Shown here: in pieces, positions 1 to 5,460 of the stretch
How positions within the stretch are numbered: the stretch's first letter is position 1
Layout of the letters: each line of letters starts with the position of its first letter
Origin: Naegleria gruberi
Taxonomy: Eukaryota
DNA: 5,460 nt
Strand: one strand, 5' to 3'
NCBI GenBank assembly: GCA_000004985.1
Contig: GG739161.1
Made by a program: the position numbers and the translations under genes
Notes under the pieces: generated by a model
Seen by the model: the letters and a program-made list of their open reading frames with translations, nothing else
Told to the model about the DNA's origin: nothing
The model's database searches: none

Positions 1-1320
1 ATTCGTGGTTATTTTGATAATTGTTCCTTGATTTCAAAACAATTCTTTAATGTGATCAAGGAGCGTTCAAAACTTTTTATTAAATTTAAAAAGAAATTTA
101 CAGAGAAAAGAATTAAATTATTCATGAAGAGTCAATTTATGAATAGTATTGTTAATGTTAAATTTTCTAAAAGGTTGTTTGACTCTATAGAAAAACCCAA
201 ATTCATATGTGAAATGAAACAATTAACATCACTTATTATTAGTGGAAATCAAATTGGTGATAAAGAAGCCAAATTTATAAGTGAAATGAAACAGTTAACA
301 TCACTTGATATTTATAACAATCGTATTGGTGATGAAGGTGTCAAGTCAATAAGTGAAATGAAACAATTAGTATCACTTAATATTTATAACAATCGAATTG
401 GTGATGAAGGAGTTAAATCAATAATAGAAATGAAACAATTAACATCACTTGATATTGGTGGAAATCGAATTGGTGATGAAGGAGTCAAATTTATAAGTGA
501 AATGAAACAATTAACATCACTTAATATTTCTGAAAATCAAATTGGTGATAAAGAAGCCACATTTATAAGTGAAATGAAACAATTAACGTCGCTTAATATT
601 TATAACAATCGAATTGGTGATGAAGGAGTCAAATCAATAATAGAAATGAAACAATTAAAATCACTTGATATTGGTAGAAATCAAATTAGTGTAGAAGGAG
701 CTAAATTTATAAGTGAAATGAAACAATTAGTATCACTTAATATTTATAACAATCGAATTGATGAAGGTGTCAAGTCAATAAGCGAAATGAAACAATTAAC
801 ATCACTTAATATTGCTGAAAATCGAATTGGTGATAAAGAAGCCAAATTTATAAGTGAAATGAAACAATTAACATCACTTGATATTTATAACAATCGTATT
901 GGTGATGAAGGTGCCATATTTATAAGCAAAATGAAACAGTTAACATCACTTAATATTTATAACAATCGAATTGGTGATGAAGGAGTCAAATCAATAATTG
1001 AAATGAAACGATTAACATCACTTGATATTGGTAGAAATCGAATTGGTGATGAAGGAGTCAAATTTATAAGTGAAATGAAACAATTAGCATCACTTGATAT
1101 TTCTGAAAATCGAATTGGTGATGAAGGTGTCAAGTCAATAAGCGAAATGAAACAGTTAACATCACTTAATATTTCTGAAAATCGAATTGGTGATGAAGGA
1201 GCCAAGTCAATAAGTGAAATGAAACGATTAAAATCACTTGATATTGGTGGAAATCAAATTGGTGATGAAGGAGTAAAATTCATAAGTGAAATGAAACAAT
1301 TAGCATCACTTAATAAGTAG
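1..1320 (+). CDS. RNI-like leucine-rich repeat protein, about 15.5 tandem 24-aa repeats. The frame is open to the left window edge, so the gene is probably 5'-partial. The first in-frame ATG is at 124, and the track start at 28 is a TTG.
   Basis: Seen in sequence: 430-codon ORF ending at TAG 1318-1320. The repeat unit is EMKQLTSL(D/N)I.xN(R/Q)IGDEG(V/A)K(S/F)IS, which matches the ribonuclease-inhibitor-type LRR pattern (L..L.L..N.IGD.G...L). Frame 1 runs without a stop from nt 1 to 28, so the coding region likely starts upstream of the window, or at ATG 124. Confidence 0.8.
   Translation: MRGYFDNCSLISKQFFNVIKERSKLFIKFKKKFTEKRIKLFMKSQFMNSIVNVKFSKRLFDSIEKPKFICEMKQLTSLIISGNQIGDKEAKFISEMKQLTSLDIYNNRIGDEGVKSISEMKQLVSLNIYNNRIGDEGVKSIIEMKQLTSLDIGGNRIGDEGVKFISEMKQLTSLNISENQIGDKEATFISEMKQLTSLNIYNNRIGDEGVKSIIEMKQLKSLDIGRNQISVEGAKFISEMKQLVSLNIYNNRIDEGVKSISEMKQLTSLNIAENRIGDKEAKFISEMKQLTSLDIYNNRIGDEGAIFISKMKQLTSLNIYNNRIGDEGVKSIIEMKRLTSLDIGRNRIGDEGVKFISEMKQLASLDISENRIGDEGVKSISEMKQLTSLNISENRIGDEGAKSISEMKRLKSLDIGGNQIGDEGVKFISEMKQLASLNK
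211..1317 (+). repeat. Tandem array of 72-bp coding repeats (about 15.5 units, each encoding one 24-aa LRR). Unit 7 is 69 bp after an in-frame 3-bp loss. Units 1-3 are near-duplicated as units 9-11 at a 573-bp offset.
   Basis: The motif 'gaaatgaaaca' recurs at 211, 283, 355, 427 and so on, which is a 72-bp period. Units 3 (427-498) and 11 (1000-1071) differ at about 3 of 72 positions. In the unit starting at 715, RIGDEG becomes RIDEG. Confidence 0.9.
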
Positions 1321-1717
1321 TATTATACAGTAGAAGTATGAAAGTAAGTTACCTTGTATATTTTTAAATCAGTTAGTGCACCTAACAAAAAAGATTGAAA
1401 GCATACCCTTATTGAGCTGCTCTAATTGCTCTTCTGAATTTTCCCCAAAAAGATATTTTGGATTTGGATGACTTTTGGTGAGATTTTCCAATAAAAAAGA
1501 AAGGGTGTAGAATAGTGTAGAACTATAATAAATAATTTGCTGGTCAATTAACAGTTTACAATGGTGTGTTGGTGTTGAAAATGCTATGAAGAGAAGTACC
1601 AGGTAGCCAACCTAGATAAGTCTCCACTTGAAAACATGATGCACTTTCTAATCACCAAATTACATAATTAGTAAACCTAATACGGATGCAAAAAATCAAG
1701 TTTCACACAACAAAAAA

Positions 1718-2680
1718 ATGTTTCAACTGAATACACACATTATTCCTTTTGCTTGCAGCCTAATTCCATTGACTGTTGGTATTTATTTTGCTAGAAAGTA
1801 TTTTAACGGGCCAACTGTCAGTGAAAAATTACTGAAATCATCAGATTTGACAGGTAAGATTGTTATTGTCACTGGAGCAAGTGCTGGTGGAATAGGATTT
1901 GAAACTAGCAAAGTATTGCACAGATTGGGAGCAACAGTTGTGTTGGCTGTCAGAAATCAACTGGCTGGTGACAAGGCTAAAGAATTAATCGAAAAGGAAA
2001 ATGGAAATTCTGACAAATTAATTGTAATGCTCATCGACTTAGCAGATTTAGCTTCTGTTAAGAAATTTACAGAACTTTTCATGTCAAAATTCAATCAGCT
2101 TGACATTTTAATTAACAATGCAGGAATCATGTCAATTTACGGAACTACCAAACAAGGAGTGGAACTTTTATTTGGAAGCAACCATTTGGGCCACTTTCTT
2201 CTCACACACTTACTTTTGAATTTGCTTAAAAAATCCAAAGATGGTCGAATTATTAATTTGACATCTGTCTCTGCAAATTCAAATTTGGAATTTATTGAAA
2301 AATACGCAAATTTTGAATTGGAGTCATTGATTGGAGATTGTAAGACATCACATCCCAATAATTTTGCACTTTACAGGAGATCCAAGTTGGCCAATATTTT
2401 ATTTAGCAAAAAATTAAGCAGAGAACTAGCTCTAGATTCTTCCAATTTAGTTCAATGTTATTCTAATCATCCAGGAACTGTAAAGTCAAATATGGGAAAG
2501 CACATGCCTCTATTATTCAGATTATGCACCAAAATCTTCCTCTTTCCAATACTTGCCTTAGTTTTGAAGAGTACTTATCAAGGAGCTCAAACAACAATTC
2601 ATTTGGCTCTTTCGAATAAGAAAGATTTGAAATCGGGTAACTATTATGCTGATTGTCAGGAAAAGGTTGGATCCATATGA
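1718..2680 (+). CDS. Classical short-chain dehydrogenase/reductase, retinol dehydrogenase 11/12/13/14-like, with an N-terminal membrane anchor. The annotated stop is probably premature, and the homologous C-terminus continues in the +1 frame to TAA at 2784-2786.
   Basis: Seen in sequence: ATG at 1718 in the context aaaaaaATG. N-terminal hydrophobic segment. Gly-rich NAD(P)-binding motif VIVTGASAGGIG. NNAG motif (ILINNAGIM). Catalytic Ser in LTSVSANS. YxxxK as YRRSK. C-terminal GAQTTIHLALS and SGNYYADC resemble the RDH11-14 subfamily. Frame 0 from 2682 encodes DSIELQDKLWKNSFELCKEY, which resembles the RDH C-terminal ..RLW..S.ELL motif. Confidence 0.85.
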   Translation: MFQLNTHIIPFACSLIPLTVGIYFARKYFNGPTVSEKLLKSSDLTGKIVIVTGASAGGIGFETSKVLHRLGATVVLAVRNQLAGDKAKELIEKENGNSDKLIVMLIDLADLASVKKFTELFMSKFNQLDILINNAGIMSIYGTTKQGVELLFGSNHLGHFLLTHLLLNLLKKSKDGRIINLTSVSANSNLEFIEKYANFELESLIGDCKTSHPNNFALYRRSKLANILFSKKLSRELALDSSNLVQCYSNHPGTVKSNMGKHMPLLFRLCTKIFLFPILALVLKSTYQGAQTTIHLALSNKKDLKSGNYYADCQEKVGSI

Positions 2681-2942
2681 AGATTCCATTGAATTGCAAG
2701 ATAAATTATGGAAAAACAGTTTCGAATTATGCAAAGAATATTTAAACGAAACCAAACTTTCTTCAAACCAGAATCCAATCCAATAAAAATCCTCACTGAT
2801 GAAGAAATGCTTTGATTGTTTTAGAATCAAAACATTTAATACATAAATGAAGCAAATCCACAGTGAGGAATGAGAAAAGTTCGTAATAAGTTTCATAAGT
2901 TTCTGAATAGATGCGGTTAACAAACATCAAAGAAGTAAATAA

Positions 2943-3860
2943 ATGTCATTTGTCTCTGTTTCTAATCAAATATTTAAAAAAATGTGGACAACAAGACGTA
3001 GAACAATACTTTCCTTGATTTTACTGACAATATCTAGTTGTCTCGTGTATATATTTCTCTTCATTCTCTATCAACCAAATATTGATGAAAAATTAACTTT
3101 TCTTCATCCAATCATAATCCGAAACAAATATTCGAAAGCTAAAATTGCAATCGTTTCATTCCATACGAAAAGCTTTCAAGAAATTGGACGAATGACAAGT
3201 CTGAACAAGATTTTCTACTCTCTAAAGCATAATTATGATTTTATCCTATTCAATCAACCTTTCTATAAATCATGGTTTGTGAAACCTGCTTGGAATAAGA
3301 TTCCACTTATCAAAAGTCAATTGAGTAGTTATGATTGGATTATTTGGATTGATTCTGATGCACTTGTGTTATTGCATCAAGTTGATTTGGATCAAATTAT
3401 TGAGGAATCGTTGAAACGAGATCCGAATAAGAATGGAGAAATTAACCTAATCATTTCATATGATAGAAATGGATTGAATAGTGGAATAATGGCTATTAGA
3501 AATTGTAAATGGTCACATCAGATATTGAATAATGTACTCAGTTGGAAATACTTTCTCTATTCCATGCATTGGTATGCAGAACAAACTCCACTCGTTATGG
3601 AACTCGAACATGGAAAATCTCAGAATGTTCGAGTTGCCTTGAAATCATTCCTCAATTCGTACATGTATGATTATAAGGAGGGTAAATCATTTATATTTCA
3701 CTTGGCTGGATGTAATAAGTATGAGGGAAATTTGTGTGCCTCAATTATGAGAAACTTTTATGAAAATTGGAGGGAAAGGAATGTCACCACAGTGGAGGAT
3801 AGAGAATTATTGAGAAAGACTGAAATTATTTATGATGGAGTGAGTGGAGGTGGATCATAA
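2943..3860 (+). CDS. Type-II membrane glycosyltransferase, GT34-like (Mnn10/Mnn11/Gma12/xyloglucan-xylosyltransferase family; alpha-1,2-galactosyl or alpha-1,6-mannosyl transferase type).
   Basis: Seen in sequence: ATG at 2943. A short cytosolic N-terminus (KKMWTTRRR) is followed by one hydrophobic span (ILSLILLTISSCLVYIFLFILY). The segment KPAWNKIPLIKSQLSSYDWIIWIDSDALVL matches the GT34 signature W.K(I/L)P.......E..W(I/V)WW.D.DA, which includes the DxD motif. Stop TAA at 3858-3860. Confidence 0.7.
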   Translation: MSFVSVSNQIFKKMWTTRRRTILSLILLTISSCLVYIFLFILYQPNIDEKLTFLHPIIIRNKYSKAKIAIVSFHTKSFQEIGRMTSLNKIFYSLKHNYDFILFNQPFYKSWFVKPAWNKIPLIKSQLSSYDWIIWIDSDALVLLHQVDLDQIIEESLKRDPNKNGEINLIISYDRNGLNSGIMAIRNCKWSHQILNNVLSWKYFLYSMHWYAEQTPLVMELEHGKSQNVRVALKSFLNSYMYDYKEGKSFIFHLAGCNKYEGNLCASIMRNFYENWRERNVTTVEDRELLRKTEIIYDGVSGGGS

Positions 3861-4080: not shown

Positions 4081-4151
4081 TCGGGTGTGGTATAGTGGTA
4101 GCATTCCAGACTGTCACTCTGGCGACCCGGGTTCAATTCCCGGCACTCGAG
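4081..4151 (+). tRNA. tRNA-Asp (anticodon GTC), eukaryotic type, no encoded CCA.
   Basis: Hand-folded cloverleaf. The acceptor stem pairs tcgggtg (4081-4087) with cactcga (4144-4150), giving 7 bp with one G-U. The D-arm is gtat/agtggta/gcat. The anticodon stem pairs ccaga (4106-4110) with tctgg (4118-4122), and the loop is ctGTCac with the anticodon at 4113-4115. The T-arm is ccggg ttcaatt cccgg (4127-4143). The discriminator is g4151. The A-box is gtatagtggta and the B-box is ggttcaattcc. The overall sequence is close to metazoan and fungal tRNA-Asp. Confidence 0.9.
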
Positions 4152-4161: not shown

Positions 4162-4568
4162 AATATTTAATAGTTTCAAAATATCGATAAAAGCATATAG
4201 TCTACCTAATTCTCGATTTTCAAATGATCATCTCTTAAAACCATAAAGAAGATAACCTCAGATTATACTGACCTATTTTCTTCAAAAATCACAAGCAGAT
4301 GCTCAACTGAACTTGGAAAAGTTGAGCTCAAAAAACCAATGAATCTTGTGCTTTACCTTACATTTTCCTTAATTAATGCAGGACTGCATTTGATATTTGA
4401 TGGATTCAATTTATCCTCCATCTTGTTCATGTTTTGGGTCCCTCATCATGCTTACTATTATTTAATTTAATATCTTCGTCATCATACATGTTCGGAATTT
4501 AAAAAAAACTCAATTTTACTCTGATTGAGATTCTCTATGTGCAATGATTTTTCAATTAATAAAAAGAG

Positions 4569-4758
4569 TTGGGTGGCTCCTAATCTGACGGTTTGTGCAA
4601 TGTCTGATTGAAACCAAATCAAAGTGAGCAATTAAGCTCAAACCCTGATCCCTACAAAAAATTGAGTTAATAGTAATGCAACCCGTGGGCTGCTTTCAGC
4701 TATTAAACTGAAAAGAACAGATACTACACTCGATCAAAGCCAATTGGCCGAGAAAGAT
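4569..4758 (-). ncRNA. U2 spliceosomal snRNA gene. The 5' end is at 4758. The 3' end is approximate and lies near the ...GGAGCCACCC(AAC) terminus.
   Basis: The reverse complement of 4758 downward reads AUCUUUCUCGGCCAAUUGGCUUUGAUCGAGUGUAGUAUCUGUUCUUUUCAGUUUAAUAGCUGAAAGCAGCC...CAAUUUUUUGUAGGGAUCAGGGUUUGAGCUUAAUUGCUC...GGAGCCACCC. This contains the near-invariant U2 5' region and the branch-point-binding GUAGUA (human: AUCGCUUCUCGGCCUUUUGGCUAAGAUCAAGUGUAGUAUCUGUUCUUAUCAGUUUAAUAUCUGAUA). It contains the Sm site AAUUUUUUG. It contains a stem-loop III-like GAGCuuaauuGCUC. Its 3' terminus is similar to human ...GGUGCACCC. Confidence 0.85.
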
Positions 4759-4781
4759 GGTTTTGAGTATTACATAAGGAT

Positions 4782-4891: not shown

Positions 4892-5383
4892 CTAATTCTT
4901 TACTTTGATTTCATCCTTCCACCAAGCACCATCCATATCTTCCACTGTCTTGCTGTATTGATTGAATTTCCATCCATCCTGAGAGGTTTCTTCCTCTTTG
5001 AGGAATCCCCACATTTTAACTCGTTTCCAATGAAAGAATAAAGTCCAAACCTCACATTCGTCCACAATTTCCTCATTATTTTCATCCAATTCCTTAATTT
5101 CCTTATTCTCATTCGGTTGAGGTTTCAGCAAGACTCGGTGATAATCCTTCCCACTGAAATAATTAACACTTCCTGCACGAAACTCCTTCTCACTCATCTT
5201 TTTATTCGAATGCGAAACTTTAATTTCCCTATACGAACCACTTAATATCAAACTAATGCCAAACTTCCACGGATGATCGTGATACCCTCTATCAGGATCT
5301 GAATGCACAAATCGATGTAACACTAAACCAGGTCCATTTTCAAAAGATAATAAATTGATCTTTCCAAAATTAGAACGTTTGTT
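4892..5383 (-). CDS. Cupin-type thiol dioxygenase-like protein (cysteine dioxygenase / cysteamine dioxygenase / plant cysteine oxidase superfamily). This is the 3' exon only. There is no ATG, and the N-terminal 70-100 aa are expected in an upstream exon, possibly beyond the right window edge.
   Basis: Seen in sequence: the frame is open from 5383 down to TAA at 4892-4894. The track 'M' at 5323 is actually GTG. The translation ...KINLLSFENGPGLVLHRFVHSDPDRGYHDHPWKFGISLILSGSYREIKV...GSVNYFSGKDYHRVLL aligns with the CDO core ([36 protein letters not shown]...NDSIGLHRVEN). It also aligns with the ADO/PCO HDHPgM..SK.LyG motif. That gives a 3-His metal triad HxH ... H. The C-terminal 80 aa (acidic and Trp-rich) are not CDO-like. 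A candidate 3' splice acceptor, ttctaattttggaaAG|ATC, sits at about 5360. Confidence 0.45.
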   Translation of the reverse strand, partial: NKRSNFGKINLLSFENGPGLVLHRFVHSDPDRGYHDHPWKFGISLILSGSYREIKVSHSNKKMSEKEFRAGSVNYFSGKDYHRVLLKPQPNENKEIKELDENNEEIVDECEVWTLFFHWKRVKMWGFLKEEETSQDGWKFNQYSKTVEDMDGAWWKDEIKVKN

Positions 5384-5460
5384 TTATCGTTCAATGAGTG
5401 AAAGATTTGTTTCCTTGGCAAGTGTTTGGATAACGTATGGAGAAGTTGTTCATTTTTTTG

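Follow-up and report, generated by a model that had tools for sequence, protein, structure and literature searches.

A frame break in a retinol-dehydrogenase-like SDR gene of Naegleria gruberi: consensus error or recent deletion?

In the draft genome of Naegleria gruberi NEG-M, the reading frame of a retinol-dehydrogenase-like gene of the SDR type closes at a TGA, and the adjacent frame goes on to encode what resembles the C-terminal segment of the same protein. The locus raises the question of whether N. gruberi makes a shortened SDR, joins the two frames during expression, has lost the gene by a recent mutation, or possesses an ordinary gene whose deposited sequence is short of bases. The window analysed here is the entire 5,460-bp scaffold that carries the gene (contig GG739161.1), part of the NEG-M Sanger draft and containing 0 N. 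The NEG-M assembly is Sanger-only and comprises 1,977 scaffolds, the N50 being 160 kb (PMC9928731 Table 1; PMC8040595), which places a scaffold of 5,460 bp among its smallest pieces. The features of the window are compiled in Table 1.

Table 1 Features of the 5,460-bp scaffold, with the elements of the two frame-broken genes listed below the gene to which they belong.
Feature	Position	Strand	Basis
LRR_6 repeat gene	ORF 28-1320, repeats 198-1315	+	72-bp period
SDR gene	1718-2786 across the frame break	+	Pfam adh_short, relatives
SDR CDS part 1, frame 2, Met1-Val317	1718..2668	+	Pfam, XP_002668287.1 identity, invariant columns
Break zone GGATCCATAT, frame 2 to frame 0, most simply a net 2-nt deficit vs the family	2669..2678	+	HSP overlap, spacing, repair scores
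SDR CDS part 2, frame 0, DPYEDSIELQDKLWKNSFELCKEYLN, conserved C-terminal helix	2670..2747	+	second tblastn HSP
Premature TGA closing the annotated 320-aa product	2678..2680	+	frame-2 translation
12-residue C-terminal extension ETKLSSNQNPIQ and TAA	2748..2786	+	beyond the end of the closest relatives
GT34 glycosyltransferase ORF (GMA12/MNN10-type)	2943-3860	+	305 aa, N-terminal hydrophobic stretch
tRNA-Asp (GTC)	4081-4151	+	ARAGORN and Rfam, 57 bits
U2 spliceosomal snRNA, full-length	4568-4760	-	Rfam RF00004, 119.5 bits, E 1.1e-24, model 1-192
HDHPW-motif gene, right end of scaffold	4892-5453	-	tblastn, DNA alignment with L004
1-nt deficit, AGA-TC-AAT vs L004 AGA-TTC-AAT	5357..5358	-	single-base gap in DNA alignment
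1-nt deficit directly after ATG, ATG-AA-CAA vs L004 ATG-CAA-CAA	5449..5453	-	alignment; 8-12 nt from scaffold end

To the left of the SDR gene, the LRR_6 protein is encoded by 15.6 tandem 72-bp units (198-1315, +; ...NRIGDEGVKSISEMKQLTSL...), with one Gly codon missing from the repeat near 757-770 (NNRIDEGV). Towards the left the LRR frame stays open as far as base 1, and the LRR gene may therefore extend beyond the left scaffold end; an intron-like stretch, GTAAGTTACC...TTTTTAAATCAG, is found at 1340-1372 (+), directly 3' of the LRR stop codon. To the right, the public N. gruberi model of the GT34 gene (P0121) begins at Met84 and comprises just 222 aa, compared with 303 aa for the orthologue in N. 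lovaniensis. The tRNA-Asp and U2 genes are ~420 bp apart.

The SDR ORF at 1718-2680 is 100% identical to NAEGRDRAFT_76802 (EFC35543.1 / XP_002668287.1 / D2W5V8), a 320-aa 'predicted protein'. Pfam PF00106 adh_short is matched over residues 47-197 at 105.4 bits against a cut-off of 26.6, and the SDR motifs are kept, namely T52-G53..G58-I59-G60 (TGASAGGIG), N133-N134-A135-G136 and the catalytic residues S183/Y219/K223. The cofactor, NNAG and catalytic residues all lie in invariant or near-invariant columns of the alignment of relatives, and the same part of the gene specifies an N-terminal hydrophobic helix. Judged by its sequence, the protein is a classical SDR nearest to the RDH11-14/DHRS13/TIC32 group and would be an ordinary member of it after repair of the frame; the Pfam match and the closest named relatives bear out the RDH11-14-like identity given to it in the initial annotation.

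The coordinates reported there for the two frames are reproduced by the translations. Frame 2 reads ...SGNYYADCQEKVGSI and ends in ...YYADCQEKVGSI-TGA at 2678-2680; frame 0, open from 2646, reads ...DPYEDSIELQDKLWKNSFELCKEYLNETKLSSNQNPIQ as far as the TAA at 2784-2786; and the third frame contains many stops. In tblastn searches of 13 relatives against the window, the HSP in frame +2 reaches 2674, and for nine of the ten heterolobosean relatives a further HSP begins in frame +3 at 2661-2676 (E values from 1.6e-7 to 1e-2). The two HSPs overlap at 2670-2674, N. fowleri residue 327 being common to both, in agreement with the proposal that homology shifts by +1 within a few bases and continues in the new frame.

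An open frame of 38 codons has a probability of ~0.04 from base composition, and among 2412 windows of non-coding DNA on this scaffold, 267 are likewise open; a frame of this length is likely enough by chance that the case for a frame jump is carried by similarity and not by openness. The second HSP shows 58-64% identity to Naegleria homologues, and identity to N. fowleri amounts to 64% in the out-of-frame tail (25 residues), compared with 54% in the gene body. As the initial annotation had recognised, the downstream frame encodes the conserved C-terminal segment of RDH-type proteins: every one of 108 relatives keeps this segment, extending at least 20 residues past the break, and its helix residues are conserved as L (106/108), W (104/108) and S (108/108). 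We looked for relatives that end at KVGSI and leave the downstream part unconserved, and found none among the 108. AlphaFold2 predicts a helix at residues 325-348, with pLDDT of 93-98 over residues 311-340; the L-W-x-x-S-x-x-L helix of the window SDR is conserved yet lies in the next frame, and enters the protein only after repair. A profile built from relatives only gives 394 bits to the annotated 320-aa product and 424-430 bits to the frame-repaired versions. On the strength of these comparisons, the jump of homology from frame 2 to frame 0 is confirmed as real and far beyond chance. The tail that follows the conserved W is longer in the window SDR (24 aa) than in the 108 relatives (7-19 aa), and its 12-residue extension (2748-2783) is predicted by AlphaFold2 to be disordered, with pLDDT of 43-72.

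To locate the break, we compared the deposited sequence across it, GGATCCATATGA (within 2660-2690), with the EKVGNP[LM]E of N. fowleri and N. lovaniensis, which is matched both by E-K-V-G in frame 2 (2660-2671) and by D-P-Y-E in frame 0 (2670-2681). Because E-K-V-G matches residue for residue in frame 2, the A-run at 2661-2664, one of two sites suggested earlier for the lesion, is excluded, and the switch must fall within 2669-2678, an interval that takes in the other suggested site, the gg at 2669-2670. Of the 108 relatives, 104 have a DC-to-LW distance of 17 residues, three have 18 and one has 26, and none has a shorter one; the window has 49 nt in place of the 51 nt (17 codons) expected, which makes a net loss of 2 nt the most parsimonious change. 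Repairs of 2 nt also outscore repairs of 1 nt by 5-7 bits under the relatives-only profile. The break is therefore most simply read as a net 2-nt deficit rather than a 1-nt indel, which would revise the size postulated at the outset. The original sequence may have been GGA-GAT-CCA or TCC-ATA-TAT-GAA, the candidate losses being GGA-GAT to GGAT or ATA-TAT to ATAT, and a restored form would show GGAGATCC or ATATAT.

The HDHPW-motif gene, which lies at the scaffold's right end, is broken as well. Its family, which has no Pfam or NCBIfam match, is widespread and counts 1,258 representatives at E <= 1e-3. The tblastn HSPs of this gene are split between frames -1 and -3, and comparison of the gene with a related Naegleria contig of ~80% nucleotide identity (ENA ERZ12289978, hereinafter designated L004) reveals two single-base deficits (Table 1). 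With both bases restored the gene becomes a single clean 187-codon ORF, and its dN/dS of 0.089 at a dS of 0.96 indicates strong purifying selection; the occurrence of two deficits in a gene under such constraint suggests unpolished draft sequence. The public model of this gene (P0125) covers only its last 101 aa. The encoded protein carries a ~20-residue insert (PQPNENKEIKELDENNEEIVDE) relative to its relatives.

We put the probability that the SDR frame break is a consensus error, arising in an unpolished small scaffold of the 2010 Sanger NEG-M draft, at about one half. The locus would then encode one continuous SDR of ~356 residues, comprising an N-terminal hydrophobic helix, a Rossmann core, a Ser-Tyr-Lys centre and a C-terminal helix. 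Two bases (net) would be absent from the deposit in the break zone, which would displace the final 38 codons to the next frame and give rise to the TGA at 2678; the organism would make the full-length SDR, and the annotated 320-aa model would be a truncation artefact. For three frame breaks in 5.5 kb, affecting two genes under selection, a single cause, a poor consensus, is a simpler account than independent recent mutations. The SDR gene is otherwise undamaged: its 356 codons contain no further stop, none of the invariant and catalytic residues is missing, and its root-to-tip length is 0.71 compared with 0.65-0.70 for relatives. The repaired protein (~356 residues) is modelled by AlphaFold2 with a mean pLDDT of 92.5. 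An undamaged gene, a repaired product that is predicted to fold and a tail at least as conserved as the body all favour a consensus error. Both further deficits are no more than 105 nt away from the scaffold end; a weak consensus is expected there in any assembly, and they are for that reason less informative about the middle of the scaffold.

The initial annotation had left the choice between sequencing error and recent mutation, and it is to these two readings that our analysis also narrows. A true, very recent 2-nt deletion in NEG-M, maybe confined to one allele, is almost as probable. By this account, slippage would have converted GGAGAT to GGAT or ATATAT to ATAT, and the gene would now be a young pseudogene or a loss-of-function allele specifying a 320-aa protein without the C-terminal helix. 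The net 2-nt deficit relative to 104 of the 108 relatives and the best-scoring repairs, which are likewise of 2 nt, suit a deletion of this kind: both candidate sites are dinucleotide repeats once restored, and a net loss of 2 nt is less usual than one of 1 nt in base calling and typical of slippage at GAGA or ATATAT, which counts against an error. The sequence around the break also looks accurate; the flanking residues show no other anomalies, so that no low-quality patch is apparent. At least two paralogues, P0005 and P0006, are present in the same genome and would render a real loss of the window SDR tolerable, and the lack of a syntenic orthologue in the retrieved flanks of the GT34 gene of N. 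lovaniensis or N. fowleri points to a lineage-specific copy that is plausibly dispensable. Against a deletion, the SDR gene shows neither a second lesion nor relaxed constraint, so that the event would need to be extremely young, and the two other breaks on the scaffold, located in a strongly constrained gene, point instead to sequence quality. A decayed pseudogene was rejected on account of the single lesion, the intact catalytic and cofactor residues and the normal branch length.

We searched for other copies of the locus. Look-ups of the exact products of the 320-aa SDR and the 305-aa GT34 ORF returned no further contig, and a database search with the 65-aa repaired SDR C-terminus returned no candidate. 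In JGI metagenomes, a degenerate DNA pattern for EDSIELQDKLWKN gave no match and a scan for relatives gave nothing above 32% identity. A Logan run of a related Naegleria (SRR25266747) contains an orthologue of P0005 and none of the window SDR. Within 10 kb on either side of the N. lovaniensis GT34 orthologue there is no SDR, and none was found near that of N. fowleri, for which the upstream flank comprises only ~2.3 kb before the contig starts. The GT34 neighbourhoods in N. lovaniensis (L002, PYSW02000001.1) and N. fowleri (L003, VFQX01000009.1) contain exportin-6-like and esterase genes, and no SDR, LRR or HDHPW gene was detected in the retrieved flanks of either. The differing neighbourhoods indicate that N. 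gruberi does not share its gene order at this locus with N. lovaniensis or N. fowleri.

A long-standing, functional isoform of this SDR paralogue that is naturally truncated is very unlikely. The Rossmann core and the catalytic residues do lie upstream of the stop, which would be compatible with a working short form. The initial annotation had listed natural C-terminal truncation among its explanations, and as a long-standing state it is contradicted by the at least 20 residues that all 108 relatives keep past the break, with the Ser invariant and the L-W near-invariant, by the high-confidence prediction of the C-terminal helix (pLDDT 93-98), and by the downstream frame itself, since an unused frame would not stay open and 64% identical to N. 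fowleri.

Still less credence attaches to a programmed +1 frameshift at AUA-UGA-A, in which the ribosome would skip the stop-codon U and read GAA in an antizyme-like manner, with termination at the UGA giving the short form. The geometry is formally possible, the 0-frame UGA at 2678 being followed in the +1 frame by GAA-GAU and the conserved helix, and the resulting KVGSI-EDS product scores 424 bits. The window resembles antizyme +1 frameshifting in having a 0-frame UGA followed by a +1-frame continuation, but unlike antizyme it has no UCC-UGA-U motif, no downstream structure and no conservation in homologues. None of the 108 relatives, ten heterolobosean homologues included, requires a frameshift, the site is not among known shift motifs, and the product would fall one residue short of every relative. 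Folding of the 80 nt downstream gives an MFE of -8.9 kcal/mol, no better than shuffled sequence (z = -0.94); an equal or lower energy is reached by 34 of 200 shuffles. The low weight first given to programmed frameshifting is accordingly upheld. If true, recoding at AUA-UGA-A would provide truncated and full-length SDR and would be the first nuclear recoding event for Heterolobosea. Reading of the TGA as selenocysteine was rejected because frame 2 meets a TAA three codons on.

A spliceosomal intron bridging the frame change is the least credible reading of all, because the ten GT..AG pairs with a length of 1 mod 3 that keep the ORF open all remove invariant or near-invariant residues (G307/Y309/D312 or the ELQD..LW helix), as foreseen in the statement that no intron would fit, the conserved coding of the two frames abuts within one base (2668, 2670), and the annotators' model contains none.

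As a lesion or artefact, the SDR frameshift is of an ordinary kind and not new biology. Its practical value is annotation hygiene: the public model NAEGRDRAFT_76802 (XP_002668287.1, D2W5V8), whose locus tag was not found in the literature searched, is probably 36 residues too short, and adjacent public models are likewise truncated (101 aa and 222 aa), so that N. gruberi proteome comparisons inherit the truncations. Neither outcome touches an open biological question, and a real deletion would give a single young loss-of-function allele of an ordinary sort, within a gene family that is redundant.

Compared with known proteins, the closest solved folds and sequences are light-dependent protochlorophyllide oxidoreductase (LPOR; 7jk9, 6l1h, 6r48) and 3rd5 of Mycobacterium paratuberculosis, with Foldseek E values of ~1e-18, target-normalised TM scores of 0.75-0.85 and phmmer E values of 4.5e-23 to 1.2e-12; at just 22-27% identity to the window SDR they serve as fold references only. 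The best named matches are RDH11-14 and DHRS13 of animals and TIC32 of plants, all SDR7C-type classical SDRs, which have 36-41% identity to the window SDR, a DC-to-LW spacing of 17 residues and the C-terminal LW..S..L helix that the window SDR gene carries in the next frame. Closest overall are homologues from Naegleria and Willaertia, 342-389 aa in length, among them N. fowleri FDP41_007791, N. lovaniensis C9374_007049 (352 aa), the N. gruberi paralogues P0005 and P0006 and the Willaertia magna homologues, with identities of 51-55% (Naegleria proteins) and 43-46% (W. magna). These homologues have in common with the window SDR the N-terminal hydrophobic helix, the TGxxxGIG, NNAG and S-Y-K motifs and a C-terminal part ...DCKEKVGNPLENSTELQDRLWETSLELCQEYL, with which they all run on past the position of its stop; the window SDR forms a separate, deeper branch in the tree. 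Each of the homologues is encoded by one unbroken ORF that ends 0-1 residue after YL, whereas the window SDR is frame-broken at the GNP position and carries the 12-residue tail extension.
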